64,000 bases of DNA from Candidatus Hydrogenedentota bacterium (GCA_024278275.1 JAJRTN010000039.1:21030-85029); one strand, 5' to 3'. Positions 1 through 47,916 are shown, counted from the first letter of the stretch. Notes: a model not told the origin generated them from the letters alone. Numbers and translations are program-made.

Positions 1-75
1 GCCACCAGCCCCACGGCCAGGATGGTCAGGGCCACCATGACCTCCAGCAGGGTGAAACCGCCGTTTCGCTTCATG
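1..75 (-). CDS. prepilin-type N-terminal cleavage/methylation domain protein (pseudopilin), 5' end only; gene continues past the window start
   Basis: Minus-strand translation of 1-75 gives MKRNGGFTLLEVMVALTILAVGLV: class III leader with G at -1, F at +1, E at +5 and a hydrophobic helix. Truncated by the window edge, so absent from the ORF track. Confidence 0.55.
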
Positions 76-102
76 CAAAATACCTCGATGTTACTGTCCG
101 CA

Positions 103-984
103 TCAGGACGCGATCTTGACGCGCCCCGTGGATTTGAAAAGTTGGATTGGTGTATGGACGAATTCGCCGTTCGGGTTCTCGATGTCCACCAGGCGCTCGG
201 AAGGATCTTCCTCGGGACCGGGCGCGACATAGATGGTGTACCGTTCCTTCGCGCCCGCGGTGATGAGTCGCCCCGACGAACGGAACACGTGGGCCGGGAA
301 AAAGGCCGTAACCGGGTTGTCCCGCGCGGGATCGCCGGGGGGGGCCAGGGGGCCGGAATCTTCCAGGTACGCCTCGATCTTCGTCATGCCGAGTTCGCTC
401 AGGCCGCGAACCCCCGATCCTGCATCCGACTCCTTCGGGTAATCCGCCGGCAGGCGGGGCGTGAGGAGCGGCTGGATGAGATCGGGGAAGCCCGGCTCGA
501 CCGGGTTGTTCAGTAAAATACAGGTCCGGCCCGTGAGGGTGCGGAAATCACCCTGTTCGCCCTTTACGGGCACGTACTTCCCCGCGAAGGCGCCGCTGGT
601 CGAAGGCAGTTCGTACAGCATAGCCGCCGAGCGGATGATGCGAATGATGTTGCCCGTCACCGAATCGGTCATGGGCTCCACCATGAGCGTGTCCCCGGCA
701 CCGTCCAGGTAACCGTCGTTGTTGGCGTCCAGGGACGGGGATGTGTAATTGTCGAAGCTGTAGGCCACCGCCGTGTTCACGTTAAAGGTGGAGGCATAGA
801 TGCGGGCGGCCCGCAGGAAGGCATACAATTCGCGGGAACTGCGCTGCAATTCGTTCCGGGAAAACACGCCGATACGCGCCATGCCGGGCACGGCCAGGGC
901 GGCGAGGATGGAGATCATCCCCAAAACCACCAGCAACTCGACCAAGGTGATACCCGGCGCGCTTTTCCAACGGCTTGTTGCCAC
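103..984 (-). CDS. pilin-like protein with prepilin-type N-terminal domain (large pseudopilin / minor pilin)
   Basis: ORF 103..1002 contains ...KSAPG/ITLVELLVVLGMISILAALAVP with G at -1 and E at +5. The track start at 1002 is a GTG. A second in-frame GTG at 984 follows GAGGAGAG by about 9 nt and gives a short leader MATSRWKSAPG, so it is the likelier start. Confidence 0.75.
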   Translation of the reverse strand: MATSRWKSAPGITLVELLVVLGMISILAALAVPGMARIGVFSRNELQRSSRELYAFLRAARIYASTFNVNTAVAYSFDNYTSPSLDANNDGYLDGAGDTLMVEPMTDSVTGNIIRIIRSAAMLYELPSTSGAFAGKYVPVKGEQGDFRTLTGRTCILLNNPVEPGFPDLIQPLLTPRLPADYPKESDAGSGVRGLSELGMTKIEAYLEDSGPLAPPGDPARDNPVTAFFPAHVFRSSGRLITAGAKERYTIYVAPGPEEDPSERLVDIENPNGEFVHTPIQLFKSTGRVKIAS

Positions 985-1009
985 GGCTGCTGCTCTCCTC
1001 ACGGCCGGT

Positions 1010-1912
1010 CTAGCGGTAGAACCGCATCCAGCTCTGTCCTTTGTCCCAATTGTTCACATCATCGCCGCCCCCCATGAGAATGGGGTCCTGCGCGTCATAA
1101 AAAAGCTCGCGGTCGCTGCCCACGCCGGGCTGGATCCAGGGTATCTGGGTTGCCGCGCCGCGCTGGTCTCCGGAACTGATGCTCGAGAAGTCCACGATGG
1201 CCTGGCCGGACTGCAAATTCTCGCCGTAGGAGTAGACATAGGCGGTTAACTTGGTCGTGGCCGGGTAGCCAATCTCAACGGTTTCGCCAATTTCATCGTC
1301 TTCCACCTGGAGGATCAGGCCGTCATCGGGATCCGGCTTGCTGCCCGGCAGATTGTCCACGGCCCGCTGGTAAACGCGGAAAGGCACCGGCGAGTTCACC
1401 ACGTTCCCGAAACGCCTTGGCCGGGGCAGGGGACCGGGCCAGATCTGGTAAAGCTTTTCACCCCACGGGTCGTTTGCCAGGTCAAGATAGCCGGTACCGA
1501 GATCCTTCACCACATCCTTCCTCAGAAAATGGGAATAGGCGACGCCCAGTTCGGAATCAACCCGCGTCGAATCCAGGGCACTCCGCCCTTCGCGCAACAG
1601 GGCGTAGAAGGTGCGCGTGTAGATCCGCTGCGTGGCCGACAACTGGGCGGCGGTCAGGGCGCCCCCCCCGTAACCGATGAAGCTCCGTATGTTGGCGTCG
1701 TTGAGCAGATGCTTGAGGCTGCTGCGCCCCGAATCGGCCAGCATGGTGGTAAGGGCCAGGTCGATGCCCTGGATATCCGCCAGCGCCGCGGTTGCTTTGC
1801 CGCGGCGGAAATAGCTGGCCGCCTTGGGCACGGCAATAGCCGCCAGGATCGAGATGATCCCGATCACCACCAGCAGTTCGACCAGTGTGAAGCCTCGCCT
1901 TTGAGCGAACAT
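1010..1912 (-). CDS. pilin-like protein with prepilin-type N-terminal domain
   Basis: Internal ATG at 1912 preceded by GGGAG gives MFAQRRG/FTLVELLVVIGIISILAAIAVP (E at +5). The track ORF 1010..2092 is an N-terminally over-extended version. Confidence 0.8.
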   Translation of the reverse strand: MFAQRRGFTLVELLVVIGIISILAAIAVPKAASYFRRGKATAALADIQGIDLALTTMLADSGRSSLKHLLNDANIRSFIGYGGGALTAAQLSATQRIYTRTFYALLREGRSALDSTRVDSELGVAYSHFLRKDVVKDLGTGYLDLANDPWGEKLYQIWPGPLPRPRRFGNVVNSPVPFRVYQRAVDNLPGSKPDPDDGLILQVEDDEIGETVEIGYPATTKLTAYVYSYGENLQSGQAIVDFSSISSGDQRGAATQIPWIQPGVGSDRELFYDAQDPILMGGGDDVNNWDKGQSWMRFYR

Positions 1913-2015
1913 ATTCTTTTCTCCCTCGTTCCCGTGCCGGCGTCCCGGCCGGCGGTACCGCACGAAAGACGCGCCGTCCGTGTGCGAACTTCGGCGGCGC
2001 GCCTGCGCAAACTGC

Positions 2016-3251
2016 CTACTTGTTGATCTGGTCGCCCAAGGTGAAGATGGGCAGGTACAGGGCCACGACGATGAAACCGATGACACCGCCAAGGCAGATG
2101 ATGATGGCCGGTTCGAGGAGGGTCAACATGCCCTCCACGGCCATCTTCACTTCTTCGTCGTAGATGTCGGCCACCTTCATGAGCATGGCGTCGAGACTGC
2201 CCGTCTCCTCGCCCACGTCGATCATGTTCACTACCATGGGCGGGAAAACCTTGGTCTCGTCCAGGGGGGCGGCAATGGTGTCCCCCTCCCTGATGCTGTC
2301 ATGCACTTTGTCCACGGCGTACTGCACGACGCAGTTGCCGATGGTCTCGCGGGTAATCTTGAGCGCCTGGAGGATAGGCACGCCGGAGTTAATCAGGGTG
2401 CCCAGGGTTCGCGCGAAGCGCGCCACGCTGACCTTAATCACCAAATCGCCCACCAGGGGCACTTTCAGGACCACACGGTCGACCACCCGCCCGACGATTT
2501 TGATCTTCATCACCAGCTTAAAGGCAATGACAAACCAGCTCACGGCGACAATACCTTTCCACCACTCGTAAATGGCGAAATCACCGCAGGTAATAAGGAA
2601 CTGGGTGGGCCAGGGCAGGTCGCCGCCGAACTCCTCGAAGATGTCGGCGAAGACGGGCACCACCTTCAGCAACAGAAACATGACAATGCTGAAGGCGATG
2701 ACGATAACCGCGATGGGGTAGATCAGGGCGGCTTTAACGCGACGCTTGAGGGCTTCCCGGCGTTCCATGAACATGGCCAGGCGCTGCAGCACCACCTCCA
2801 GCATGCCGCCCACCTCGCCGGCGCGCACCATGTTCACGTAGAGCCGGTCAAACTGCCGGGGGTGCTTGGCCAGGGCCTCGGAGAAAGTGGCGCCGCCCTG
2901 AATGTCGCTTGATATTTCCTTGATGATGTCGCGCAGCTTACAGGGCTTGAGCTGGGCGACAAGCACGCTCAGGCAACGCAGCAGCGGGAGACCGGCGTCG
3001 ATAAGGGTTGAAAGCTGACGCGTCATCACGACGATCTCTTTCTGCTTCACGCCGCCGAAGTAAAGCTCGTCGAGCCCCTTCTTCTCCTTGCGCGCCTTCT
3101 TCTCATCACGCCGCGTCGCTTCGCGCACGTTGGTGGGATAAAGCCCCAGGGCGCGCACGTCGTTAATGGCAAGGGCCTGGCTGTCGGCGGTCACCACGCC
3201 GAAGATGGACTTGCCTTCCTTGTTCAGCGCTTTGTAAGCAAACTTGGGCAT
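2016..3251 (-). CDS. pilC: type IV pilus assembly / T2SS platform protein (GspF/PilC family, two T2SSF repeats)
   Basis: 411 aa. Family-typical segments (for example LRAGEVGGMLEVVLQRLA and the C-terminal 3-TM region) repeated twice. SD GAGGAA upstream of the ATG at 3251. Confidence 0.9.
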   Translation of the reverse strand: MPKFAYKALNKEGKSIFGVVTADSQALAINDVRALGLYPTNVREATRRDEKKARKEKKGLDELYFGGVKQKEIVVMTRQLSTLIDAGLPLLRCLSVLVAQLKPCKLRDIIKEISSDIQGGATFSEALAKHPRQFDRLYVNMVRAGEVGGMLEVVLQRLAMFMERREALKRRVKAALIYPIAVIVIAFSIVMFLLLKVVPVFADIFEEFGGDLPWPTQFLITCGDFAIYEWWKGIVAVSWFVIAFKLVMKIKIVGRVVDRVVLKVPLVGDLVIKVSVARFARTLGTLINSGVPILQALKITRETIGNCVVQYAVDKVHDSIREGDTIAAPLDETKVFPPMVVNMIDVGEETGSLDAMLMKVADIYDEEVKMAVEGMLTLLEPAIIICLGGVIGFIVVALYLPIFTLGDQINK

Positions 3252-3265
3252 GCCGGATTCCTCGC

Positions 3266-5020
3266 TTAGTCTTCGAACTTGTCGGTGTGAATCAACACTT
3301 CCTCGGCGCTGGTAATGCCTTGCACCGCCTTGATAAAGCCTTCCTCGCGGAGGGTGCGCATGTTCTGTTTGGTCCGCGCATAACGCCGTATGTCAAAGGC
3401 CATGGCGCGATCCAGGATCATGTCGTTCACGGTCTCGTCCGCAATGAGCAACTCGTAGAGTCCCGTGCGTCCCATATAGCCCACGTAGTCGCAGGCAGGA
3501 CAACCCTTGGGCCTGAAGAACTGCAAATTCGGATCCGCCCGCCACGAATCGGGCAATCCCAGCAGTTCCATCTCCTCCTCGTCGGGCCGGTAGGCCTGCC
3601 GACAGTGCCGGCAGAGCACGCGGACCAGCCGCTGGGCCAGCACGGCCTCAAGCGACGCGGTGATGAGGAAGGGTTCCACGTCCATGTCCAACAGGCGGGT
3701 AATGGTCTCGGGCGCGCTGTTGGTGTGGAGCGTGCTCAGCACCAGGTGCCCCGTAAGCGATGCCTCCACCGCGATATTGGCGGTCTCCAGGTCGCGAATC
3801 TCACCGACCATCACGATATCGGGGTCCTGGCGCAGGATGGAGCGAAGGCAGGCGGCGAAGGTCAGGCCAATCTCCTCATGCACCTGGCACTGGATAAGGC
3901 GGTCAATCTGCAACTCCACCGGGTCCTCGGTGGTGATGATCTTCACATCAACCTGGTTGAGCACGTTAAGGCAGGCGTACAGGGTGGTGGTCTTGCCGGA
4001 ACCCGTGGGCCCCGTGACCAGCATGACGCCATTGGGTTTATGGATGACGTTGTCGATCTTTTTCAGCACGTCGGGGCTGAAACCCAGAACGTTCAGGTCG
4101 ATCTTGACCGCGGTTCGGTCAAGAATACGCATCACCACCATCTCGCCGTAAAGCGTGGGCAGCGTGGCGACGCGGATATCAATGAGGCTGTCGCCCACCT
4201 TCAGTTCGATACGCGCGTCCTGGGGAAGGCGGCGCTCGCTGATGTCCATGTTACAGATAACCTTGATGCGGGACACCAGGGCGATGGCCATGCTCTTGGC
4301 CGGACTCACCAGCTCGTGCAGTACACCGTCCACGCGCAGCCGAATACGGAAGGTATCCTCGTACACCTCGAAATGAATATCGGACGCGCGCTTCTGCACG
4401 GCTTCCAGGAACACCAGGTTGACGATCTTGATGACCTCGGGCTGCTGGGAGAGTTCGACCAGGTTGTCAATATCACCGACGATCTCCTGCTGGCCCAACT
4501 CTTCGAGGGTCAGCTCCGCGGTACCCACGAGTTCTTCCAAGCTGTCCAGCATTTCGGAAACGGAGCTGGACTCGGTGGTGTAGTTGGCCTTGTGGGCCGC
4601 GCTGATATCCTCCTGGTTGCTCACCGCGCCCCGCACTTCCATGCCCGTGATCTGGGACAAATCGTCGAGGGTGTGCACATTCAGCGGATCGGCCATGGCC
4701 ACGACCAGCACGCCGTCGGTGATGCGAATCGGCAAAACCGTATAGAACTTGGCCACATCCTTCGATATCTTCTGAAGCACTTCCTCGGGAATCTTGAGCT
4801 TGGCCACATCAACCCGTTCCATACCGGACTGGATGCCGAGGGCTTCAATGATGTTCTGCTCTTTGCAGTAGCCCATGCTGACCAACACGCGCCCGAGCAT
4901 GTCGCCCGTCAGGCGCTGGCGCTGAACGGCCTCGTCAAGTTGGAGCGGTGTAATAACGCCCTGCTCGATAAGAATATCGCCCAACTGCTTTTCGCGGGAA
5001 TCTTCCGGTGCTACCGCCAT
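3266..5020 (-). CDS. GspE/PilB-family secretion ATPase (N-terminal MshEN-like domain plus AAA core)
   Basis: 584 aa. Walker A GPTGSGKTTTLYA and a C-terminal tetracysteine (CRHC...CPAC). N-terminus has QLGDILIEQGVITPLQLDEAVQRQ matching the MshEN-type motif. SD GAAGGAG. Confidence 0.92.
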   Translation of the reverse strand: MAVAPEDSREKQLGDILIEQGVITPLQLDEAVQRQRLTGDMLGRVLVSMGYCKEQNIIEALGIQSGMERVDVAKLKIPEEVLQKISKDVAKFYTVLPIRITDGVLVVAMADPLNVHTLDDLSQITGMEVRGAVSNQEDISAAHKANYTTESSSVSEMLDSLEELVGTAELTLEELGQQEIVGDIDNLVELSQQPEVIKIVNLVFLEAVQKRASDIHFEVYEDTFRIRLRVDGVLHELVSPAKSMAIALVSRIKVICNMDISERRLPQDARIELKVGDSLIDIRVATLPTLYGEMVVMRILDRTAVKIDLNVLGFSPDVLKKIDNVIHKPNGVMLVTGPTGSGKTTTLYACLNVLNQVDVKIITTEDPVELQIDRLIQCQVHEEIGLTFAACLRSILRQDPDIVMVGEIRDLETANIAVEASLTGHLVLSTLHTNSAPETITRLLDMDVEPFLITASLEAVLAQRLVRVLCRHCRQAYRPDEEEMELLGLPDSWRADPNLQFFRPKGCPACDYVGYMGRTGLYELLIADETVNDMILDRAMAFDIRRYARTKQNMRTLREEGFIKAVQGITSAEEVLIHTDKFED

Positions 5021-5046
5021 GATGCAGTTTGCTCCTTCACGCCGCC

Positions 5047-6144
5047 CTAACCGGCCGCGGGTTTGGCTCCATCACCCCCCTGAATCGCTTTGCAGGTCGC
5101 CGTGAATTCCTCGGCGTGCTGCGCTCGGATAAGCAATTCCTCAAAATCACAAATGCCACGTTTGTAAAGCGCAAAAAGGTGCTCATCCAGAAGGTTCATG
5201 CCGAACTTATGCCCGGTCTGGATGGCCGACGTAATTCGATAGGACTTGTTTTCACGAATGAGATTCTGAATGGCCGGCGTGGTGATCATGATCTCGAAGG
5301 CCGCCACCCGGCCGTAACCGCCTTTGCGCGGCACCAGGGTCTGGGAAATAACCGATTTGAGGTTGCCGGCAAGCTGCGTGCGAATCTGTTCCTGGGCATT
5401 GTTCGGAAAAGCGTCGATGATACGGTCCACGGTGCGCACCGCACCCGTGGTGTGCAAGGTTCCAAAAACCAGGTGACCGGTCTCCGCCGCCGTAATGGCC
5501 GCCTCGATGGTCTCCAGGTCGCGCATTTCACCCACGAGAATCACGTCGGGGTCCATGCGCAACGCACGGCGCAGGGCCTCCGAGAAGGTGGGCACGTCAA
5601 CGCCCACCTCGCGCTGGGTGACAATACTGTTCTTGTGGTTGTGGAAATACTCGATGGGGTCTTCCACCGTGATGATGTGATGACCACGGTTCTGATTGAT
5701 CCAGTCGATCATCGTGGCCAAGGAGGTGGACTTACCGGAACCCGTCGGCCCCGTCACGAGAATCAGGCCGCGGGGCTGATCAATCACTTCCTTGATAATC
5801 GGCGGCAAACCGATTTCCTCGAAGGTGAGAATCTTTCGGGGAATCAGGCGCAGCACAATACCCACGTGCCCGCGCTGCTTGAATATGGACACGCGGAACC
5901 GGGCGACGTCCTCGAAAGCGAAGCCAAAGTCGCTGCCGCCCACCTCCTGCAATTCCTGCTGGTTGTCCACCGACGCAATGCTCTTCATAAGGCTTTCGGT
6001 ATCTTCCGATGACAGGGGATTGTCACCGAAATACTGAAGCTTGCCGTGAACCCGCCCCACGGGGGGATTGTCCACGCCAATATGCAAATCGGACCCATCG
6101 CGGTCGATGAGCATCCGCAGCAAACTCACCATTTCATAGGCCAT
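5047..6144 (-). CDS. pilT: twitching motility / pilus retraction ATPase PilT
   Basis: 365 aa, [19 protein letters not shown]. PilT-length with no N-terminal GspE domain. SD AGGAGAG. Confidence 0.92.
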
Positions 6145-6156
6145 GAAACGTCTCTC

Positions 6157-8025
6157 CTATGCCGTTACGGCGGCTTCCGCTTTCGGCGTGTCATTGCGGT
6201 GCAACGGTTCGTCCACGCGGGTGCGCTTGTTAACCTCTTCCACCGTGGTAATACTCTTGAGCGCCTTCTGCCAGGCATCCTCCCGCATGGTGGTCATGCC
6301 ATCGAGACGCGCCTGGCGCCGAATGGCCACGGCGGACTGGCCCGCCATCAGCATCTGGCGAATGGCGTCGGTGGTTTGCAGCAATTCATAGGCACCCAGC
6401 CGGCCCAGGTAGCCGGTGTTGTGACAATTGTCGCAGCCGACCCCGTGGTAGAGTTTCACCTGATCCAAATCCACCGGGAAACCCAAACGTTCGATCTGCA
6501 CGGGATCGGGCTCACACACCTCTTTGCACCAGTTGCAAATGGTTCGCATCAGGCGCTGCGCCAAAATGGCCCGCACACCGGACGCCACCAGGAAGGGCTT
6601 AATGCCGATATCGATCAAACGGGTGAACGAACTGGCCGTGTCATTGGTGTGCAGCGTGGAGAACACGAGGTGACCGGTGAGGGCCGCCTTGATCGCGATC
6701 TCCGCGGTCTCAATATCTCGAATCTCACCCACCATCACGATGTCCGGGTCCTGGCGAAACATGGCGCGCAAGGCACGCCCGAAATCCCAGCCGATCTCGT
6801 GATTGATTTGCACCTGGTTGATACCGCTGAGCTGGTACTCGACCGGGTCCTCCACCGTGATGAGCTTGGTATCGGGTTTGTTCAGCGTGTGGAGGGACGC
6901 ATAGAGCGTGGTCGTCTTGCCCGAACCCGTCGGCCCCGTCACCAGCACCACGCCCGTGGCGTTGGTAAGAAGCTTCTCCCAATCACTTTGATCCTGCTCG
7001 GACATGCCCAACTGCCCCAAGCCCAAAAGCAGACCGCTCTTGTCCAGGATACGCATGACCACGCTTTCACCATAGGAGGAAGGCAGCGCGCTCACGCGAA
7101 GGTCAACCACTTTACCACTCAGATTCATCTTGATGCGGCCGTCCTGGGGAACGCGCCGTTCCGAAATGTCCATGCCCGACATCAGCTTGAGACGGGAAAT
7201 GATGGAGGCCTGGGCGCGTTTGGGCGGTGGCGGCATAAGCTGCATTACCCCGTCAATGCGGTACCGTATCTTGATGTCCATCTTCCCGGGTTCCACGTGA
7301 ATATCACTGGCCCGCAGCCGGAACGCTTCGAGGATCGTCTGGTTAATGTACTGCACCACCGGGCTGTTCGCGTCGTCCTCGTCCCCCTCCGTCATAACGC
7401 CACCGCCCGCACCGTCCTCCAGGTCCATCGCATCCATGCTGATGCTGCTCATGCTGATGTCACTGGCGCTCATGCTGCCCATACTCAATGAACTGTCGCC
7501 CAGACTCAAATTCGACATGCTGCTCAGGGAGCTTACGCTGCTGGCGCTGCTCGCCGAGGAAAGCATGGTCTCCACCGTGTTGTCCTGCAGGTTGTAGTAA
7601 TTGCCCAGCGCCGCGCGAATGTCTTCGGGGGTGGACAACACAAACTCCACGGGCCGCCCGAGAAGACGGCTCAGGTTGTCCTGGGTGTTGACATTGGTGG
7701 GATCCGCCGTGGCAACAACCAGGGTATCGCCACGCTCCTCCACCGGAATCACCCGGTAAAGCGTGGCAATACTGCCGTCCACCATGCCCCGAACCCGCTC
7801 AGGGATATCCCGTTCCGAGAGCTTCACCACCGGGATAGCTAACTGATCAGCCAACCCCTCGGTGATATGGCTCTTGCTGATGTGTCCCAGACGCACCAGG
7901 ATTTCACCGAGTTTGCGATGCCCCATGGTCGTCTGTTGCCGATGTACGGCTTCATCCAATTGCTGTTGGCTGATGATGCCGCGCTCGACCAGCCGACGCC
8001 CGAAAAGAGAGTACACGCCTTGCAT
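6157..8025 (-). CDS. pilB: PilB-type assembly ATPase with a Ser-rich low-complexity insertion between the N-terminal and ATPase domains
   Basis: 622 aa. N-terminus LFGRRLVERGIISQQQLDEAVHRQ matches the MshEN-type motif. Walker A GPTGSGKTTTLYA and C-terminal CNWC...CDNC. SD GAGAGGTG. Confidence 0.92.
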   Translation of the reverse strand: MQGVYSLFGRRLVERGIISQQQLDEAVHRQQTTMGHRKLGEILVRLGHISKSHITEGLADQLAIPVVKLSERDIPERVRGMVDGSIATLYRVIPVEERGDTLVVATADPTNVNTQDNLSRLLGRPVEFVLSTPEDIRAALGNYYNLQDNTVETMLSSASSASSVSSLSSMSNLSLGDSSLSMGSMSASDISMSSISMDAMDLEDGAGGGVMTEGDEDDANSPVVQYINQTILEAFRLRASDIHVEPGKMDIKIRYRIDGVMQLMPPPPKRAQASIISRLKLMSGMDISERRVPQDGRIKMNLSGKVVDLRVSALPSSYGESVVMRILDKSGLLLGLGQLGMSEQDQSDWEKLLTNATGVVLVTGPTGSGKTTTLYASLHTLNKPDTKLITVEDPVEYQLSGINQVQINHEIGWDFGRALRAMFRQDPDIVMVGEIRDIETAEIAIKAALTGHLVFSTLHTNDTASSFTRLIDIGIKPFLVASGVRAILAQRLMRTICNWCKEVCEPDPVQIERLGFPVDLDQVKLYHGVGCDNCHNTGYLGRLGAYELLQTTDAIRQMLMAGQSAVAIRRQARLDGMTTMREDAWQKALKSITTVEEVNKRTRVDEPLHRNDTPKAEAAVTA

Positions 8026-8051
8026 TTGTTCACCTCTCTGTGCGTGTCAAT

Positions 8052-8161
8052 CGCAAAAAAACGATTTTCGACAAAACCACCACCCCACCCGGCACACAGT
8101 CACCGTCCAACGGCAATATGCGTGTCCGCGGGGAATCGAAAAAACGATTTTGCAAATGACC
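8052..8161. promoter_or_regulatory. two direct repeats (about 40 bp units, AAAAACGATTTT core) upstream of the pilB operon
   Basis: 8041-8078 tgcgtgtcaatcgcaaaaaaacgattttcgacaaaacc versus 8119-8161 tgcgtgtccgcggggaatcgaaaaaacgattttgcaaatgacc. They lie 15-135 bp upstream of the pilB start in a relatively AT-rich 790-bp intergenic region. Confidence 0.4.
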
Positions 8162-8630
8162 CTCTATGCACACCTTAACTGTACCAAAGAACGCCCAAGT
8201 TGTCAATGTGAATAATGCTGGATATTGTTGAAATATAACGACTTACGTCACAAATTGTCAATTAATTACCCTGGTAATCACCATCCCGCGGGGTCAGGGC
8301 GTCCAACCAAAGCCGCCCCAGAAAAAAAATGGTTCATGGCGCACTACCGGTGTACATCATGCCAAGAGGATGATCCAAGCGCTCCCTCCAACGCAAACGC
8401 CCCTTCACCATGCGGCAATGGTCGGGCGTCGCCATTCCACACGGAAACACCAAACACCGCGCACGCAAAAGGAAAAACGTTTACGTCACGTTTAAGAAAC
8501 CCATGTAAGTGTCAATACTCCATTCTTACGCAGTCCCGCCGGGATGTCAAGTGTCTTCTTGCCGGTGCCCGTTGCGAAAATAAAGATTGCAGACTTCTTT
8601 ATTTCCCCCGAAACTGGCCTGGCGCCACCG

Positions 8631-8718
8631 CTCTCCTCCCGTCATTCCCGCGAAAGCAGGGCTCCATGGGATCGGGGGGAAGCACCTTGACCTTTTCCGT
8701 GGATTCCCGCTGCGCGGG
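8631..8718. repeat. palindromic MITE-like repeat, copy A (composite: half unit plus full unit in reverse orientation)
   Basis: ccgtcattcccgcgaaagcaggg ... ccgtggattcccgctgcgcgggaatgacgg, with terminal inverted repeats cgtcattcccgcg / cgcgggaatgacg. Translated artefacts of it appear in ORFs 8587..8823 and 8642..8938. Confidence 0.7.
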
Positions 8719-8819
8719 AATGACGGAAGGGGGACGTCGGGAGGTTACCCGCCACCGGGCACCACGACGAGCCGAAACGAGACAGGCGTGCGCAAAGGAA
8801 GGCTGGTGAAGTATCCGGG

Positions 8820-9623
8820 CTAGATTGACGCCCCTGCGTTGGCGGACACGAGCTCAATCTCGAAAATGTGGGGCCAGCGTTTTCCCGTAACGAAGAGCCG
8901 GCCGTTCGTTGTGTCGTAGGCAATCCCATTGAGCACATCTGTTTGGGGCGTACGGTCTTCGGCGGCCAACAGCCCGGTCAGGTCCACCCATGACACCACG
9001 GTCCCCGTATCCGGATCAACGATGACCATGTAATCCGTTTGCCACACGTTGGCAAAAACACGGCCGTTGATGTATTCAAGTTCGTTCAGCCGGGTAACCG
9101 GGGCGTCATTACTCCGCACCTCGACACGTCTCGTTTCGGCGAGTGTCTCCGGGTCCAGGAAGCGGAGCCACGCCGTGCCATCGCTCATGATGAGTTGCTC
9201 GTCATCGTGGGTGAGGCCCCAGCCCTCGCCTTCGTAGGTGAAAGTGCGCGTCTGCTCAAGGCGGTCCCGGTCGTAGATAAACCCGGTCTTCTCCCGCCAC
9301 GTAACCTGGTAGATGCGATCACCGAAAACCGTGATGCCCTCGCCGAAAAAACTGTGTGCCAGGCTGGTTTGCTGCAACACGGCACCGCTTTCCAGGGCGA
9401 CTCGGCGGAGCGTCGAAGCGCCATAAAGCCCCGTGCCTTCAAAAAGGCCCGCATCAGTAATGGCCAGCCCCTGGGTGAAGGCGTTCGTGTCATGGGGGTA
9501 GGTGTTGACCACCGTGTAGGTATAGCGCGGTTGTTCCTCGGGAAGGTCCGGCGGGACGGGTTCGCAGGCCCCGAAACCCACCGAAAGTGACAGGCAGAAC
9601 GAAAGCATCAGCCGCGGACTCAT
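8820..9623 (-). CDS. glutaminyl-peptide cyclotransferase (plant/bacterial-type glutamine cyclotransferase), probable lipoprotein
   Basis: Full-length similarity to bacterial/plant-type glutamine cyclotransferases (beta-propeller blades, for example NGIAYDTTNGRLFVTGKRWP). Likely start MSPRLMLSFCLSLSVGFGAC (signal peptide with Cys) at 9623. Confidence 0.8.
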   Translation of the reverse strand: MSPRLMLSFCLSLSVGFGACEPVPPDLPEEQPRYTYTVVNTYPHDTNAFTQGLAITDAGLFEGTGLYGASTLRRVALESGAVLQQTSLAHSFFGEGITVFGDRIYQVTWREKTGFIYDRDRLEQTRTFTYEGEGWGLTHDDEQLIMSDGTAWLRFLDPETLAETRRVEVRSNDAPVTRLNELEYINGRVFANVWQTDYMVIVDPDTGTVVSWVDLTGLLAAEDRTPQTDVLNGIAYDTTNGRLFVTGKRWPHIFEIELVSANAGASI

Positions 9624-9776
9624 AGGACACCTTTCCCATGCGTTGAGACATGCCCAGTATACCACCGGGGACGATCACGCCGGACTCACGCAAGCTTTCC
9701 GGCAACACAAGACATGCTCCACCCCTTTTGTGGCTGGTGGATGATATCCCCCGCGGGCGAAAGCGTGCGGACCGGG

Positions 9777-12639: not shown

Positions 12640-14031
12640 CTACTGTGCCTCCAGGTCGTATTTCTGGAGCCGGTAGCGAAGGGATCGTGGTGTGAGGCCA
12701 AGCATGGCGGCGGCCTTTTTCTGCGAATAGCGGCTGGCCTCCAGGGCCTGTCGGATCAGGCGTGTTTCCGTTTCTTCGATGAGTGCTTCAAGATCGATAC
12801 CTTCGGGAGGCAACGAGACGACCGCGGGTTTTTCGACGGGCACGAAATCCTGAATATTCTGGGGCAGATCGCTCATTTTAATCACGTTGTCAGAGCACAG
12901 GGCCACGGCGCGCTCCATGATGTTGCACAACTCGCGCACGTTTCCCGGCCAGGTGTAGCGTTGCAGCGCGGCCATGGCGTCGGCGGCAATATCCATGTCG
13001 CCACGGCCCATGTTGTCGGCATGCCTTCGGATAAAATGCCGCGCCAGCAGGGGAATGTCGTCGGCGCGGTCGCGGAGGGGCGGCACATGGATCGGGATGA
13101 CATTCAACCGGTAATATAAATCATTGCGAAACGTGCCCTCTTCGGCCATTTTCGCCAGGTTGCGATTGGTAGCCGAGATGATTCGCACATCCACTTTGAT
13201 CTCCGATGTGCCCCCCACGGGCGTCACCGTGCTGTTGTCCAACACACGCAGCAGCTTCACCTGGAGCATGAGGGGCATCTCGCCGATTTCATCGAGGAAA
13301 ACGGTTCCGCCGCTGGCCACGACAAAGAGCCCCTCCTTGTCTTCAATGGCCCCGGTAAAGGCCCCGCGCTTGTGTCCAAACAATTCGCTTTCGAGAAGGT
13401 TTTCCGGAATCCCGCCGCAGTTGATGGCGACAAAAGGCTTGTCTACACGGTCACTCAGGTTATGCAGCGCCCGTGCCACCAGTTCTTTGCCCGCCCCGCT
13501 GTCACCGTGAATGGCAACCGTGCTCGGCAGCTTCGCCACGCGGCGAATCATGGAGAGCACTTCCTGAAAGGCGCTGCTCTGGCCGATCATATTTTCGATC
13601 TTGGCGCTGAGCTGCTGTTGCTTGCGCATGGCCACGTTTTCGCGGACCAGGTTGCGTTGGGCGATAGCGCGTTCGACCCGAAGCCGGATCTCGTCGTTAC
13701 TCTTGAAGGGCTTCTGGATGTAGTCCGTGGCGCCCCGCTGCATGGCCTCGACGGCCGTTTCCACCGAGCAGTGGGCGGTCATCATGATGGAGGGAGTCGT
13801 GGGAGCGTGCTCTTTCAGCCAGCTCAGCAGGGTGAGCCCCGCCTCGCGCTCGCTTCCCATGCGAAGGTCGGTCAACACCACGTCGAACTGCTTCTTCTGC
13901 AAAAGCGAAACGGCTTCGTCCACGCCGGAAACCGATTCCACCACGTGGCCGGCGTTCTCCAGCACGATTTCGAGCACTTCTCGCATACCCAATTCGTCAT
14001 CGACGACGAGCACCTGATATTGCACCGCCAT
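12640..14031 (-). CDS. pilR: sigma-54-dependent two-component response regulator (REC, AAA+ sigma-54 interaction, HTH), PilR-like
   Basis: Start MAVQYQVLVVDDE at 14031. HGDSGAGKELVARALH motif and C-terminal Fis-type HTH. Adjacent to the sensor kinase and pilB/pilT. The track ORF is over-extended to 14184. Confidence 0.85.
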   Translation of the reverse strand: MAVQYQVLVVDDELGMREVLEIVLENAGHVVESVSGVDEAVSLLQKKQFDVVLTDLRMGSEREAGLTLLSWLKEHAPTTPSIMMTAHCSVETAVEAMQRGATDYIQKPFKSNDEIRLRVERAIAQRNLVRENVAMRKQQQLSAKIENMIGQSSAFQEVLSMIRRVAKLPSTVAIHGDSGAGKELVARALHNLSDRVDKPFVAINCGGIPENLLESELFGHKRGAFTGAIEDKEGLFVVASGGTVFLDEIGEMPLMLQVKLLRVLDNSTVTPVGGTSEIKVDVRIISATNRNLAKMAEEGTFRNDLYYRLNVIPIHVPPLRDRADDIPLLARHFIRRHADNMGRGDMDIAADAMAALQRYTWPGNVRELCNIMERAVALCSDNVIKMSDLPQNIQDFVPVEKPAVVSLPPEGIDLEALIEETETRLIRQALEASRYSQKKAAAMLGLTPRSLRYRLQKYDLEAQ

Positions 14032-14051
14032 GTCCCGGTTGCTCCCTGGTT

Positions 14052-15707
14052 CTATGTGTCCGGCGTCTCCGTATCGTCTCCGCCACCCACCACCCGGGGA
14101 AGGCGAACCCGCATCGAAGTGCCGCCTTCCGGCCGTGCGGCCACCTGCATGGTCCCATCGTGGGAAGTCACAATGCGGAGACAAATGGCCAGCCCCATAC
14201 CGACGCCTCGCTCTTTCTCGGTGAAAAAAGGCTCAAAAATGCGTGACACCTTGTCCGGCGGGATTCCCGGCCCCTCATCATCGAAGCGGACTTCGGCCGG
14301 ACCGGCGTCCGTGAGCAGCGAGATGGTCAAGGTGCCCTGCTCGTGCATCGCCTCAATGGCGTTCTGACCGAGGTTAAGAAAAACCTGACGCAACTGCATG
14401 CGGTCCCCCAGCACCTCGACCACGGTCTCCGGGGTCCGCGTGGTAATACGCAGATCCCGGGCATGGGCAAACTGCCGTTCAAGATGGGCGCGCACGTTGT
14501 CCACCATGGCACTGAGATTCACGATGGTGTGGCGGCGGCTGGGATCCCGCGCGAAATCCAGGAATCCCGTCACGATATCATTCAAATGGTCGGACTCACG
14601 AATGGCGATATTGGCCAAGCGCTCCACCATGGCCGGCTTCTCCGTACCCCGGCGCAATTCTTCCATCGCCCCGCGAATAGCGGCCACCGGATTGCGTATC
14701 TCATGGGCCAGGCCGGCCGTCAGCTCGCCGATTACCGCCATCCGGTCCTGCTGTTGGAGGAGCTGACGCATGTGGGCCATCTCCGTCAAGTCGGTAAACG
14801 AGGCGATGAGGCCCGTAACAGCGCCGCGTGAATCACGCAAAGGGTTGGTGGTGAGTCCCAGCAATTTGGTTTCTTGTTCACCCACGCGGGCGTGAAACTC
14901 ATAACTGGTGAAATCCTTCTGGCTGCGCAGGGCGGTCACCACGGGATTCTCGGCGCCGCTTTCCGGCATTATGATGCCTTCCACGTGACGTCCCGCCACG
15001 TTCCCTTCATCGACGCCCAGAATATGGCAGGCCGCCCGGTTCATGGCGATCACCAGTCCCTTGGTGTCGCAGATCAGGAATCCACTGCTCAGGTTGTCGA
15101 GGATCTCCCGCTGAAACTGCTTCATCCCGCTGACGCGCTGATTCCAATAGCCGCTTATGAAGGCCGTAAAGAAGAATCCAATCACGAGAATGAGAAAGTG
15201 ATACCAGTGGGTCAGGGGGTCGTCGCTCCGCGGCGTGGATACGGCGAAATGGAAAAACATGAACAACGAGGAGAGCGTGGCGAAAACAAAGCCCTGGCTG
15301 AGTCCCATGAGGACACCCGCCTCCAGGATGACCGTCACCAGTAGGAAGGTAAAGAAACTCTTTTCCGCGCCACTAAAGCTGATGGTAATGGCCACCACGC
15401 CAAAATCCACCATCATCTGCATCCAGGTGAGGGCGGGGTTGACTCCCGGCCGCCCCCGCAGCGACACCAGGTACCAGATGCCGCTGGCGCAGGCCGCCAG
15501 GTAAACCCCCGTGAGAAGGAACAGATAACGCTCCTCCGCGGCCACCAGGTGGGCGCCCGTGGCCACCACGAGCAGCAGACCCAGGCGGGCCGCGCCCACG
15601 AACCAGAGCCACGATACGGGGCCGTCGTAGGAAGGCGCCAGGAAGCCGAACGTTGCGGGAACCTTAAACGCCCCGCCCGATGATTGTAACGACGTCTTCC
15701 GGGTCAC
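14052..15707 (-). CDS. pilS: membrane sensor histidine kinase (multi-TM, PAS, HisKA, HATPase_c), PilS-like
   Basis: 551 aa, about 6 N-terminal TM helices, H-box GLAHEIRNP, G-box near the C-terminus. GTG start overlaps the upstream pilT stop (GTGA). Confidence 0.85.
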   Translation of the reverse strand: MTRKTSLQSSGGAFKVPATFGFLAPSYDGPVSWLWFVGAARLGLLLVVATGAHLVAAEERYLFLLTGVYLAACASGIWYLVSLRGRPGVNPALTWMQMMVDFGVVAITISFSGAEKSFFTFLLVTVILEAGVLMGLSQGFVFATLSSLFMFFHFAVSTPRSDDPLTHWYHFLILVIGFFFTAFISGYWNQRVSGMKQFQREILDNLSSGFLICDTKGLVIAMNRAACHILGVDEGNVAGRHVEGIIMPESGAENPVVTALRSQKDFTSYEFHARVGEQETKLLGLTTNPLRDSRGAVTGLIASFTDLTEMAHMRQLLQQQDRMAVIGELTAGLAHEIRNPVAAIRGAMEELRRGTEKPAMVERLANIAIRESDHLNDIVTGFLDFARDPSRRHTIVNLSAMVDNVRAHLERQFAHARDLRITTRTPETVVEVLGDRMQLRQVFLNLGQNAIEAMHEQGTLTISLLTDAGPAEVRFDDEGPGIPPDKVSRIFEPFFTEKERGVGMGLAICLRIVTSHDGTMQVAARPEGGTSMRVRLPRVVGGGDDTETPDT

Positions 15708-16780
15708 GCCGTTCCTTTATCGATCAGGTGTTGCAGTCCTTCGGGGTCGGAGCTGCGTTTAAAAGCCATGTCTGTGGTGATAATACCGCGCCGCATAAGG
15801 CGGTACAGCGATTGGTTCATGGTACACATTCCCTCGCCCTTTCCGATCTCGATCATGGAAGGAATCTGCTCCAGTTTTTCGGCGCGAATAAGAGAGCGGA
15901 TGGCGGGATTGGCGAGCATGACCTCCATGGCCAGCGCGCGGCCCATGCCGTCGGCACGGGGAATGAGCTGTTGCACCACGACGGCTTCCAGTACGAAAGA
16001 AAGCTGCGTCCGTACCTGATCTTGCTGCGAGGCGGGAAACACGTCGATAATACGGTTCATGGTCTGAAGGGCGTCGTTCGTGTGGAGTGTCGCAAAAGCG
16101 AGGTGGCCGGTTTCCGCCACCGTAAGCGCCGCCTGGATGGTTTCCGTATCCCGCATTTCACCGATGAGTATAACATCCGGATCCTGTCGCAGCACCCGCT
16201 TCAGGGCGTCGGAAAAGGAATTCGTGTCCGCGTGTATTTCTCGCTGATTTACCACCGCGCGGTTATGCCGATGAAGGTACTCGATGGGGTCCTCGATGGT
16301 GATAATGTGCACGTTGCGCTCGCGGTTGATCTTGTCCACGATGGCGGCCAGGGTGGTGGATTTGCCGCTGCCCGTCGGCCCGCACACCAGGACCAGTCCA
16401 ACGGGGTAGTCGGCGAATTCCGAGATCACGCGGGGCAGCCCCAGTTGCTCGAAAGAGAGGATTTCGAAAGGAATCGCCCGGAAAGCCGCCACCACCGAGC
16501 CGCGGTCACGGTAGACATTGAGGCGAAAACGGCTCAGTCCCTCGACACCGAAAGACATGTCGCATTCCCGTGTCTCCTCGAATTCGGAGATCTGCTCCTC
16601 ATTCATGACACTGTAAATGATTTCCTGCGTTTGATCCGCATTGAGCCGCTCGTACCCGGTCAGGGCCTCCAGGCCGCCGTGGATACGAATCATGGGCGGC
16701 CCCCCCACCACGATATGAAGGTCGCTCGCCCCTTCCTGGATCATCTTGGTCAGCAGTTCTTTTATCGTTGGCGTGGCCAT
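15704..16780 (-). CDS. pilT: twitching motility / retraction ATPase PilT (second copy)
   Basis: 358 aa, [21 protein letters not shown]. Confidence 0.92.
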   Translation of the reverse strand: MATPTIKELLTKMIQEGASDLHIVVGGPPMIRIHGGLEALTGYERLNADQTQEIIYSVMNEEQISEFEETRECDMSFGVEGLSRFRLNVYRDRGSVVAAFRAIPFEILSFEQLGLPRVISEFADYPVGLVLVCGPTGSGKSTTLAAIVDKINRERNVHIITIEDPIEYLHRHNRAVVNQREIHADTNSFSDALKRVLRQDPDVILIGEMRDTETIQAALTVAETGHLAFATLHTNDALQTMNRIIDVFPASQQDQVRTQLSFVLEAVVVQQLIPRADGMGRALAMEVMLANPAIRSLIRAEKLEQIPSMIEIGKGEGMCTMNQSLYRLMRRGIITTDMAFKRSSDPEGLQHLIDKGTA

Positions 16781-16830
16781 ACCCTTGTTTCCTCCCGCGT
16801 TATCGCGCGTGGCCCTGTCATCAATCGCAG

Positions 16831-16917
16831 GCGTTCACGGTCCCGTTGCGGGTGCCACACGCACCCGACGCGAAATCCCGCCAATCCACAGGTTTTCCAA
16901 GGTCGTGAACAGTTACC
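16831..16917. promoter_or_regulatory. inverted pair of CCGTTCACGG-core motifs in the pilB-pilT intergenic region
   Basis: gcgttcacgg at 16831-16840 (48-60 nt upstream of the pilT start) and gtcgtgaacagttacc at 16902-16917. Confidence 0.45.
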
Positions 16918-16918
16918 A

Positions 16919-18643
16919 TCAGTCCTCCATCGTATGCTCCAACACCTGTTCGATGGAGGACAAACCCTTGGCCGCCTTGGCCAGTGCGTTTTGGCGAAGC
17001 GACTTCATCCCGCAACGAATGGCCGCCTCCTTAATCTCGTAGCCCGTGGCGTTCTTGAGCACCAGGGGGTGAATCTCGGGCCAGTTCAGCAACACTTCCG
17101 TGGCGGCGACCCGCCCGCGATAACCCGTTTCCTTGCATTTGCCGCATCCACGCCCCCGCACGAAGGTGGGTTTCTCGATGTAATCGAACGGCTTGAACTG
17201 AATCCGGTCCAGCACGTCCTGGGGAACCATAATGGGTTCCTTACACTCGGCGCACACCCGCTTAAGCAAACGCTGGGCCGCCGCCAGGGCAACGGACGAT
17301 TGTACCAAAAAGGGTTCGATCCCCATGTCGATGAGACGGGGAAACACGCCCGGCGCGTCGTTGGTGTGCAGCGTGCTGAGCACGAGGTGTCCCGTCAGCG
17401 CCGCCTTCACGGCCACGTCCGCCGTTTCACCGTCTCGAATCTCGCCGACCATCACCACATCCGGGTCCTGGCGCAGAATCTGGCGAAGCGCCTGGGCAAA
17501 GGTAAAACCAATGGCTGACTGCACCTGGACCTGGTTCACCCCGAACAATTCATACTCGATGGGATCTTCGACCGTTACCAGATTGCTCTCAACCCGGTTC
17601 AATTCATGGAGTGCACTATAGAGCGTGGTCGTTTTACCGCTACCCGTCGGCCCCGTGAGCAGTATCATTCCGTGGGGCATTTTCAGGGCCTCGGCAAAGG
17701 CTTCCATGGGCTGAGGCTCAAATCCCAGTTTCTCCAGGTCCAGGGTCAGATTGCCTTGGTCAAGCACGCGGAGCACGATCTTCTCCCCGAACTTGGTGGG
17801 CAGAAAACCCACGCGAAAATCGATTTCACGGCCCTTGTAGCGAATACGGAACCGCCCGTCCTGGGGAAGGCGGTGTTCGTCGATACGGCAGCCCGCCAGG
17901 ATCTTGAAGCGGGCGATAATGTTGTGTTGAAGCGATTTGGGCGGGGCCTTCGCTTCTTCAAGCGTACCGTCAACGCGGTAACGGATCCGGATGAGTTTTT
18001 CAAAGGGCTCGAAATGGATGTCGCTCGCATCGCGCTCCAGGGCATTGAAGAGGATGAGCCGCGCCAGCTTTTTTACCGGCTCGTCCTCCGAACCGGCTTC
18101 CAGTTTTGACACGTCCTCAATGTCATCCTGCTCTTTCAATTCCTCCATCTTTTCCGCGTCACTATCCTGGCCGACAAGCGAATCGTACAGGTTTTCGGCC
18201 GCGTCGCCACCATAGTTTCGCTCAATGGCATCGGCCAATTCCGAGGCCACGGCGACCACCGGCTCGATGTCATAGCTGATCAGCATGCGCAGGTCGTCCA
18301 GCGCCATGATGTTCAGCGGGTCGGCCATGGCGAGGGTGAGCACGTCGCCCGTAACGGACACGGGCAGCATGAGGTACTGGCGCGCCAGGGTTTCGGGCAC
18401 TTCGGCCAAGACCTCTTTGGGAATCGAATAGTGGGCAACGCGGATATGGGGTATGCCGAGTTGCTCACTGAGGGTAATCACCAGATCTTCTTCCGAAAGA
18501 TAGCCCCTCTCCACGAGAAGACTGGGCAGACTCTGGCCCGAGCTGCGGTGAAGAGCGATGCACTCGCGCAACTGTTCCTCGGTAACAAGCTTCTGTTCGA
18601 GAAGCATGTCGGGAAGTCGTTTCCTGGGAATCCTGGTGGCCAA
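16919..18643 (-). CDS. pilB: PilB-type type IV pilus assembly ATPase (second cluster)
   Basis: 574 aa, N-terminal GspE_N-like domain, Walker A GPTGSGKTTTLYS, C-terminal CAEC...CGKC. Confidence 0.92.
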   Translation of the reverse strand: MATRIPRKRLPDMLLEQKLVTEEQLRECIALHRSSGQSLPSLLVERGYLSEEDLVITLSEQLGIPHIRVAHYSIPKEVLAEVPETLARQYLMLPVSVTGDVLTLAMADPLNIMALDDLRMLISYDIEPVVAVASELADAIERNYGGDAAENLYDSLVGQDSDAEKMEELKEQDDIEDVSKLEAGSEDEPVKKLARLILFNALERDASDIHFEPFEKLIRIRYRVDGTLEEAKAPPKSLQHNIIARFKILAGCRIDEHRLPQDGRFRIRYKGREIDFRVGFLPTKFGEKIVLRVLDQGNLTLDLEKLGFEPQPMEAFAEALKMPHGMILLTGPTGSGKTTTLYSALHELNRVESNLVTVEDPIEYELFGVNQVQVQSAIGFTFAQALRQILRQDPDVVMVGEIRDGETADVAVKAALTGHLVLSTLHTNDAPGVFPRLIDMGIEPFLVQSSVALAAAQRLLKRVCAECKEPIMVPQDVLDRIQFKPFDYIEKPTFVRGRGCGKCKETGYRGRVAATEVLLNWPEIHPLVLKNATGYEIKEAAIRCGMKSLRQNALAKAAKGLSSIEQVLEHTMED

Positions 18644-36509: not shown

Positions 36510-36583
36510 GGGATGATCCCAACCTGGATTCCACCCCGCCGGGCTTGCCTATCCGTGCCCGGCGGGGTATCCTTGTCGGCACG

Positions 36584-36594
36584 GTTCACAGACA
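36584..36594. promoter_or_regulatory. CCGTTCACGG-core motif copy, 33-44 nt upstream of the orphan pilT
   Basis: cggttcacaga (compare accgttcacaga at 10237-10249). Confidence 0.3.
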
Positions 36595-36626
36595 TAAAAC
36601 CGCCACCAAAACGGGAGCAACAGGCC

Positions 36627-37706: not shown

Positions 37707-37730
37707 TGTCTTCCACGCAAAAGGCCCTGA

Positions 37731-37745
37731 CCCGGCTATGCCGGG
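37731..37745 (+). terminator. possible terminator hairpin after the orphan pilT
   Basis: cccggc-tat-gccggg stem-loop 25 nt after the stop. No clear U-tract. Confidence 0.25.
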
Positions 37746-37912
37746 TTGGGGAAAGTCCCCGTGGAGCGGTGTCCACCAGGGGCGGCTACGCTGAAAACAG
37801 GCTTAACCCGAATACACCACTTTTGTGTATACCGCGGGTTTTGCGCGGAACCTGTCCCTACGGTATCCTGTCTATTCCATCCAGGCTGCATTCGATCCAG
37901 GGAGTCCTGTCC

Positions 37913-44751: not shown

Positions 44752-47916
<3,165 letters not shown>

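Follow-up and report, generated by a model that had tools for sequence, protein, structure and literature searches.

We analyzed a 64,000-nucleotide stretch of the genome of an uncultured organism, Candidatus Hydrogenedentota bacterium (GCA_024278275.1, JAJRTN010000039.1:21030-85029; hereafter the window), which begins with a group of minus-strand genes predicted to build a type IV filament. The group includes two different PilB-family ATPases, referred to as A and B, together with one PilT, one platform protein of the PilC/GspF family, and several pilin-like proteins. Read along the minus strand, the features are as follows.

8026..8819, minus strand: upstream non-coding region of 794 bp with no credible gene, probably containing the operon's promoter
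6157..8025, minus strand: ATPase A, A-type PilB-family predicted extension ATPase, 622 aa, with an N-terminal MshEN domain and a Ser-rich linker
5047..6144, minus strand: dedicated PilT-type predicted retraction ATPase, 365 aa (TIGR01420)
3266..5020, minus strand: ATPase B, B-type PilB-family predicted extension ATPase, 584 aa, with an N-terminal MshEN domain, directly upstream of the platform gene
2016..3251, minus strand: PilC/GspF-family inner-membrane platform protein, 411 aa (PF00482, two stretches)
1010..1912, minus strand: pilin 1, candidate major subunit, 300 aa (exact protein P0174; N_methyl)
103..984 (alternative 103-1002), minus strand: pilin 2, GspH/ComGD-like minor pilin, ~293 aa (N_methyl)
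1..75, minus strand: start of pilin 3, PilV/GspI-like small minor pilin, open reading frame MKRNGGFTLLEVMVALTILAVGL, cut by the window edge

A preliminary description of this DNA had listed seven minus-strand genes here. All seven are present as open reading frames where it placed them, and their families are borne out by Pfam and NCBIfam matches (T2SSE with MshEN in A and B, PilT, two T2SSF domains in PilC, and N_methyl in the pilins). GC content at third codon positions is 0.73-0.84 across these reading frames, and GC by codon position is as in real genes, in a sequence of ~60% GC. A six-frame phmmer scan also agrees with the earlier count of three PilB-like genes (6157-8025, 3266-5020, and 16919-18643) and three PilT-like genes (5047-6144, 15704-16780, and 36513-37706), and it finds only one PilC-like reading frame, with no second one in the window.

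Two anciently separated predicted extension ATPases

ATPase A matches PF00437 at 439 bits and PF05157 at 70 bits, and ATPase B matches them at 453 and 68 bits. Both lie below the cutoffs of the PilB equivalog model (TIGR02538; 606.7 and 598 bits, cutoff 675.65) and of the GspE model (562.7 bits for A and 581.7 bits over the full length of B, cutoff 630.25). The solved PilB/PilF structures they match come from Geobacter, Myxococcus, and Thermus, with Geobacter PilB the closest to both (469 bits for A and 485 for B) and GspE reaching only 382 and 418 bits; judged by these scores, A and B appear PilB-like rather than GspE-like.

Orthologues of ATPase B, 65-79% identical, occur in 17 genome records, nearly all of them labelled Candidatus Hydrogenedentota. 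Orthologues score 830-1057 bits, as against ~420-495 bits to the paralogue, and when neighbour-joining trees are rooted on PilT, the orthologues of A and those of B form separate clades with 100% bootstrap support each, whereas A and B appear as exclusive sisters in 0.5-2% of replicates only. A grouping of ATPase B with Escherichia coli GspE is supported at 3%. The catalytic cores of A and B share 50% identity; with Geobacter PilB the value is 50-53%, and with E. coli GspE it is 47-49%. From these trees, A and B are different, anciently separated PilB paralogues and not recent duplicates, which bears out the earlier proposal of two different assembly ATPases. The preliminary description had named a recent duplication as the outcome that would refute it, and the trees speak against one.

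Both enzymes look catalytically competent, with the Walker A, Asp box, Walker B, His box, and tetracysteine site conserved in 18 of 18 A and 20 of 20 B orthologues, and with catalytic residues and zinc site intact across the wider A-type and B-type families as well. We considered whether Walker B degeneracy in A-type proteins might signal a loss of activity and rejected this: outside Hydrogenedentota these proteins carry RQ(A/S)PN where others have RQDPD, a family signature in which the catalytic Glu is intact throughout.

The MshEN domain at the N-terminus of both ATPases is a 53-residue module of two 24-residue motifs, known from the cyclic di-GMP (c-di-GMP) receptors MshE and PilB (Wang et al. 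2016, PMC5013675). A and B resemble these receptors in having two such motifs in tandem and in passing the curated model (NF053729, cutoff 38; 53.0 bits for A and 63.3 for B, with 46.5 for PilB3, the PilB-like protein at 16919-18643). Gly3, Gly10, the hydrophobic positions, and Gln24 are retained, including the glycines whose mutation abolished binding in MshE. Scored against the relaxed motif, which permits R, K, P, or N at position 1 (PMC5013675), the window's A reaches 20/22 and its B 19/22 (20-21/22 and 18-20/22 among Hydrogenedentota A and B proteins), comparable to the PilB of Myxococcus and Geobacter. They differ from the known receptors in the first Arg, replaced by Leu in the first motif of A (the second has Lys) and by Gln and then Met in B, and in the spacer of A, which is 7 residues rather than the 5 found in B (7-8 in Hydrogenedentota A proteins, as in Geobacter PilB). 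The motifs had been described as intact; the quoted strings are there verbatim and the domain model is passed, so with the first Arg substituted they are intact at the domain level only. Binding of c-di-GMP by A and B is plausible.

A conserved, probable operon for a type IVa-like pilus

The proposal that these genes form one transcript is plausible, and a single transcript is the most economical reading, because the gaps between genes are short (12, 26, 14, 103, 25, and 27 bp), a Shine-Dalgarno-like motif precedes every gene, there is no convincing internal terminator, promoter-like sites lie upstream only, and the gene order is kept throughout the phylum. Terminator-like sites are fewer than expected by chance, with none between operon genes, and promoter-like sites were found only upstream of ATPase A and none inside the operon. 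The three best sigma-70-like sites all fall within the 794-bp upstream gap, at 8261-8232 (TTGACA-18-TATATT, 11/12), 8206-8178, and 8550-8522. For pilin 2, we favour the start at 984 over that at 1002 because a Shine-Dalgarno-like GAGGAG stands 9 nt ahead of the GTG at 984.

Two candidate regulatory elements were rejected. Matches in the window to a sigma-54 promoter, which the neighbouring PilS/PilR pair might drive, occur at chance level, with none near the operon. Two AATCG-T6/7-CGATT palindromes (8049-8066 and 8134-8149) stand downstream of the promoter-like sites and ahead of ATPase A, and the general pattern AATCG-N3-9-CGATT has just four matches across the window; the corresponding region of 15 relatives lacks the palindromes, which are thus not a conserved operator.

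The operon PilT scores 465.1 bits against TIGR01420 (cutoff 319.1), and its orthologues form a 100%-supported clade apart from the other two PilT-like proteins of the window, PilT2 and PilT3. PilC matches PF00482 at the family level (219.8 bits over two stretches); it just passes the GspF model TIGR02120 (425.8 bits, cutoff 424) and does not reach that of Myxococcus-type PilC (419.9 bits, cutoff 700).

The pilins have short-leader class III signals (MFAQRRG/FTLVELL in pilin 1, ...APG/ITLVE in pilin 2, and MKRNGG/FTLLE in pilin 3) with PF07963/TIGR02532 matches, the N_methyl scores being 33.4 bits for pilin 1 and 20.8 bits for pilin 2. Pilin 1 has 214 homologues of ~250-315 aa, and all the named ones are from Hydrogenedentota. 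Its AlphaFold2 model (predicted local distance difference test, 90.1; predicted template modelling score, 0.86) has a long N-terminal helix followed by an alpha/beta domain. The family shares the motifs DPWG-x-x-Y, PGPW, and a C-terminal GGGDDINNWD, and its profile matches that of GspG with 99.2% probability (E = 9e-19) via DPWG and that of the type IVa pilin PpdD with 97.6%. In a profile search of PDB sequences only the N-terminal helix is matched, with type IVa pilins at 59-50 bits against 36 for GspG, and the GspG equivalog model gives 40.2 bits (cutoff 88.85). Pilin 1 would thus be a double-sized pilin with mixed type IVa and GspG features.

Pilin 2 has weak matches to GspH, ComGD, and cassette-D, all below cutoff, and its position is conserved in all related loci. 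The third pilin-like reading frame starts at 75, begins MKRNGGFTLLEVMV, and leaves the window at its edge; its orthologue in the relative L001 scores 40.6 bits against PilV (TIGR02523) and 28.2 bits against GspI, both below cutoff. The preliminary description had spoken of three large pseudopilins of about 300 aa. Pilins 1 and 2 are indeed about twice the normal size, but the orthologues of the third, cut gene are small (129-162 aa). Membership of the Verru_Chthon pilin-like cassette (TIGR02596/8/9) was also considered and rejected, with weak N-terminal matches only (16-28 bits, cutoffs 51-256).

The order A, PilT, B, PilC, pilin 1, pilin 2 is kept in 17 of 17 genome loci, as far as the contigs reach, and recurs in four further contigs (L021, L022/L023, L106, and L107), giving 21 related loci overall. 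Two of these loci, L003 (CAZIDP010000034.1) and L013 (CAZBQH010000500.1), are labelled Nitrospirales and Nitrospiraceae, yet they carry a Hydrogenedentota-type operon with 70-74% identity to ATPase B, and these contigs may be mis-binned.

The window ends within pilin 3, and the genes downstream of its start are known from contigs of the relatives. There, pilin 2 is followed by the small PilV/GspI-like pilin, then by a fourth pilin-like protein (367-603 aa) that takes the place of GspJ/PilW, and then by a giant protein of 2060-2559 aa with a GspK/PilX-like N-terminus and a faint to moderate lamin-tail-domain match, at or below the Pfam threshold; it has 53 homologues in total, essentially all in Hydrogenedentota. 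Next is a second giant protein, 1013-1972 aa long and matched by beta-helix or TIG domains, and after it a PilM_2-type protein of 683-699 aa (L022, L106, and L107), one or two small genes, and a secretin with tetratricopeptide repeats of 950-959 aa (L106 and L107). Between the second giant protein and PilM, the operon also has a conserved gene for a protein with PEGA repeats and a formylglycine-generating-enzyme-like (FGE-sulfatase) domain (L022 23632-25014, L106 19443-20855, and L107 21453-22931), which might modify a pilus component.

As seen in these relatives, the operon is predicted to encode a complete, envelope-spanning type IVa-like pilus machine with a retraction ATPase. A fibre of a non-canonical kind or a secretion pseudopilus had been suggested for the window's pilins; a pseudopilus of a type II secretion system (T2SS) is argued against because PilT, a PilM_2-type protein, and a secretin are encoded in the relatives' operon. 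A search for pilM/N/O/P/Q or gspD, which the preliminary description had proposed, gave PilM_2 and a secretin in the relatives, and no PilM/N/O alignment complex or PilQ secretin was detected elsewhere in the window.

Some features are shared with a T2SS. From ATPase B onward the genes follow the order gspE-F-G-H-I-J-K, PilC marginally passes as GspF, pilin 1 has the GspG-like DPWG and a C-terminal DD-x-NW, and the last minor pilin has a GspK-like N-terminus. In contrast to a T2SS, PilT lies within the operon, the cutoffs for GspE and GspG are not reached, a PilM_2-type protein is present in the relatives, and GspC, GspL, and GspM have no matches in the window. In several relatives, moreover, the stretch just upstream of ATPase A is taken up by a bona fide T2SS-like cluster of its own (L002 3-7361; also L003, L010, L011, and L015). 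It runs on the same strand and comprises gspE, F, G, H, I, J, K and genes resembling PilM/GspL and GspM; the window has a glutaminyl cyclase gene (8820-9665) in its place.

The resemblance to type IVa pili (T4aP) with a pilB-pilT-pilC core, such as those of Myxococcus xanthus and Geobacter, extends to the MshEN-bearing PilB-type ATPase, PilT, PilC, and short-leader pilins, and in the relatives to the PilM_2-type protein and secretin. Unlike these systems, the operon includes a second extension ATPase of a separate subfamily, its two ATPases fall short of the PilB equivalog cutoff (the true canonical PilB here being PilB3), its pilins stand in the T2SS order G-H-I-J-K, the major-pilin candidate is double-sized, and the K-like minor pilin has 2060-2559 aa. 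Modular minor pilins and tip adhesins, such as Streptococcus sanguinis PilB/PilC and PilY1-type proteins, likewise join a pilin-like N-terminus to large extra domains (compare PMC8179133), and such a design would be a plausible means of displaying an adhesin on a pilus. The likeness is one of description, and the scale differs, with 2060-2559 aa for the K-like protein here and a second giant beta-helix protein beside it.

Paired motors in other lineages and their possible roles

To place the pair beyond the phylum, we used the best 80 metagenomic PilB-type loci, those most similar to PilB3 in a PilB-alignment search, a biased sample in which a share of ~10-14% is indicative only. The order A-like, PilT, B-like, PilC occurs in 7 of the 80 loci and in one more (L081) whose contig ends at the A position; A-like and B-like genes are directly adjacent in three (L073, L080, and L096), and the genome scan gave a further locus, L018, with the order B, A, PilT, PilC. 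Where the contig extends far enough, no A-type gene lacks a B-type partner (L018 and 10 metagenome loci). In the tree, the first ATPases of the pairs fall with the Hydrogenedentota A proteins (bootstrap 55%) and the second ones with the B proteins (78%), with canonical PilB and E. coli GspE outside both groups, and the PilTs of the other A-PilT-B-PilC loci match the operon PilT best (433-463 bits, as against 250-330 for PilT2). L073 is Victivallis vadensis (Lentisphaerota), a cultured bacterium, and L051 is candidate division WOR-3; the L060 contig carries a PSD1/DUF1553 gene typical of Planctomycetes-Verrucomicrobia-Chlamydiae (PVC) bacteria, which only hints at a PVC or planctomycete lineage. 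In L060 and L061, PilC is followed by several 310-400-aa pilins and I/J/K-like genes. A search of 1.84 billion cluster representatives added at least 10 further A-type and at least five B-type clusters at 50% identity. The arrangement had been called uncommon, which is half right: as judged from these loci, it is a recurrent minority subtype across several phyla (8 of the 80 sampled PilB loci, with a tandem version in three more) and no rarity.

Two other forms of PilB doubling were encountered. An Omnitrophota locus (L019 6113-11998) has two tandem PilB-like genes that group with canonical PilB and not with the A or B types, flanked by two MshEN-only proteins (149 and 153 aa) and then PilC, and this looks like an independent, different doubling of the extension ATPase. 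The representative search also gave 14 tandem double-core PilB-like proteins of ~1000 aa (P0444-P0454, P0457, P0458, and P0461). Their first halves form one group and their second halves another, both distinct from every other PilB family, a pattern that suggests an internal duplication long ago; canonical Walker A and Walker B are often lacking in the second half. They were considered as Rosetta-stone evidence of contact between A and B and rejected as such, since the halves form their own clade and are not fusions of A and B. We know of no description of such proteins.

The general view is that a pilus needs one PilB motor for its extension, and the one tested exception is Acinetobacter baylyi, in which two distinct extension ATPases, PilB and TfpB, serve one pilus with one platform and PilT (Ellison et al. 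2021, PMC8213720; on such two-motor pili see also PMC11656802, section 11). PilB and TfpB are as divergent as PilB and GspE, overexpressing one did not make up for loss of the other, and in the proposed model TfpB initiates extension while PilB elongates (PMC8213720). This is, by analogy, the closest functional precedent for the A/B pair: A and B too are phylogenetically distinct and as divergent as PilB from GspE. They differ in that tfpB is not syntenic with pilC while here both motors share an operon with PilT and PilC, and in that the A/B pair, with its predicted function, occurs outside the Gammaproteobacteria, in Hydrogenedentota, Lentisphaerota, and further uncultured lineages. Neither A nor B qualifies as a TfpB orthologue (NF053534, 464.3 and 443.2 bits, cutoff 850). 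Denise et al. (2019) give PilB/PilT and PilT/PilU as the only duplications, our literature search returned no described two-PilB operon in Hydrogenedentota, Victivallis, or Planctomycetes, and the purpose of multiple PilB homologues is treated as an open question in a 2024 review.

We lean, with modest confidence, towards reading the locus as an operon for a retractable type IVa-like pilus in which two extension motors act on one PilC in different steps. Positions 1-8819 of the window would be the promoter-proximal third of a long operon, which exceeds 27 kb in relatives, and its products would build a retractable, envelope-spanning pilus of a distinct subtype. The machine would have one platform protein, one dedicated PilT, and two extension motors from co-inherited A-type and B-type subfamilies; its fibre would be built from the double-sized pilin 1 and primed by H/I/J/K-like minor pilins, with the giant K-like protein probably forming an adhesive or substrate-binding tip, a location we infer. 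A and B would share the same PilC, one raising the bulky tip complex to start assembly and the other driving processive elongation, a division of labour that is modelled on the proposal for PilB and TfpB in A. baylyi. This two-step, one-platform mechanism draws on conservation and analogy. Extension is probably gated by c-di-GMP because both motors have the N-terminal MshEN module, and the presence of PilT in the operon suggests that the pilus retracts.

Several observations weigh against this reading. Only relatives show the tip protein, PilM, and secretin, and one of these relatives, L021, ends after the second giant protein without PilM or a secretin there. No prepilin peptidase was found among the window's reading frames in a single-sequence search with E. 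coli GspO (the gene may lie elsewhere), and the pilin 1 model has no significant Foldseek match among solved structures. The deep branches of the neighbour-joining trees, 55% for A-type and 78% for B-type, are weak. In the MshEN motifs of A and B, the first Arg has given way to other residues, and the motifs are often degenerate in other lineages, so c-di-GMP control would not be general to the pair. The canonical PilB3-PilT2 pair elsewhere in the window has no nearby platform gene, so other motors might use this PilC as well. The source is uncultured, and the machine is predicted from its genes.

A and B might instead form one mixed complex, a heterohexamer or stacked or exchanging rings, that acts as a single obligate composite motor. 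We regard this as unlikely. It would account for the strict co-occurrence of A-type and B-type genes and their adjacency in L073, L080, L096, and L018, spacing that resembles translational coupling would suit matched expression, natural double-core proteins suggest that two PilB cores can work in one assembly, and bacterial two-hybrid interactions between extension ATPases have been reported in a 2024 review. The double-core fusions, however, derive from a separate internal duplication and not from A plus B, pilT separates the A and B genes in Hydrogenedentota, A and B each have complete catalytic and arginine-containing motifs, as expected of homohexamers, and all of the matched solved PilB structures are homo-oligomeric.

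Less probable again is that A and B are redundant and kept for differential regulation, by c-di-GMP affinity or conditions, with no division of labour between them. Their complete catalytic sites and MshEN domains are compatible with this, as are the differing spacers (7-8 and 5) and first-position substitutions and the fact that motif degeneration differs between A-type and B-type proteins across lineages; yet redundant paralogues are rarely kept for so long as a strict pair across phyla at 50% core identity, and in the one tested two-motor case overexpression of one motor did not replace the other (PMC8213720).

An arrangement of two machines in one operon, in which A and PilT would serve a T4aP elsewhere while B, PilC, pilins 1-4, and the K-like protein form a T2SS-like pseudopilus, fits the gspE-to-K order, the GspF score of PilC, the full-length GspE match of B, and the DPWG-based match of pilin 1 to GspG, but we think it very improbable, as there is one platform gene only, the PilM_2-type protein and secretin follow where GspC, GspL, and GspM are missing, a complete T2SS-like cluster, gspE-to-M, adjoins the operon in relatives, a separate canonical PilB3-PilT2 pair is present in the genome, A-type and B-type genes accompany a single PilC in every lineage even without adjacent pilin genes, and B does not cluster with E. 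coli GspE in the tree and is closer to PilB structures.

What is new here is the co-inheritance of two extension-ATPase families in a type IVa-like pilus system; the T4aP machine type itself is known. That two such families have stayed together in several phyla, with a single platform and mostly a single PilT, at a divergence as deep as that of PilB and GspE, argues for a non-redundant role of the second motor, and in Hydrogenedentota the link with unusual cargo, double-sized pilins and the giant tip protein, suggests a purpose for it. The pair in cultured V. vadensis makes the two-motor question testable. More tentatively, and with some doubt, we speculate that the pair marks an undescribed subclass of type IV filaments in Hydrogenedentota, Lentisphaerota, and other PVC-like or uncultured lineages, with two obligatory, co-evolved extension ATPases (composite, or initiator plus elongator) that evolved to launch fibres with very large tip proteins; dual extension motors would then be ancient and widespread and not an Acinetobacter peculiarity. 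The main text of two genomic surveys of Hydrogenedentota does not mention pili, and by that measure this would be the first surface-appendage system described for the phylum.

Other motor and pilin-like genes in the window

The window's canonical PilB, PilB3 (561 bits to Geobacter PilB), is encoded in a minus-strand cluster of pilB3, pilT2, a pilS-like kinase gene, and a sigma-54 pilR-like gene (12640-18643) without an adjoining pilC or pilA. Directly upstream of pilB3, and part of the same cluster, is a gene for a 799-aa protein (18728-21127, minus strand) that joins an N-terminal MshEN domain (Pfam MshEN, residues 98-184; NF053729, 54.6 bits) to a DnaA-type AAA+ domain (PF00308, 180.7 bits) and has no DnaA DNA-binding domain. 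No comparable fusion gene was found among the 80 sampled PilB loci, and the main text of the MshEN paper (PMC5013675) does not mention DnaA.

The third PilT-like gene (36513-37706) lies within 33723-39178 on the plus strand, between genes for a 928-aa beta-propeller protein and a 490-aa protein without Pfam matches; these neighbours adjoin it or overlap its ends, pointing to a small operon of their own. Finally, a DUF1559-type pilin-like protein (48033-49076) is encoded upstream of a glycoside hydrolase family 2 beta-galactosidase (44752-47898), both on the minus strand. DUF1559-type pilin-like proteins occur in many copies in PVC-group bacteria.

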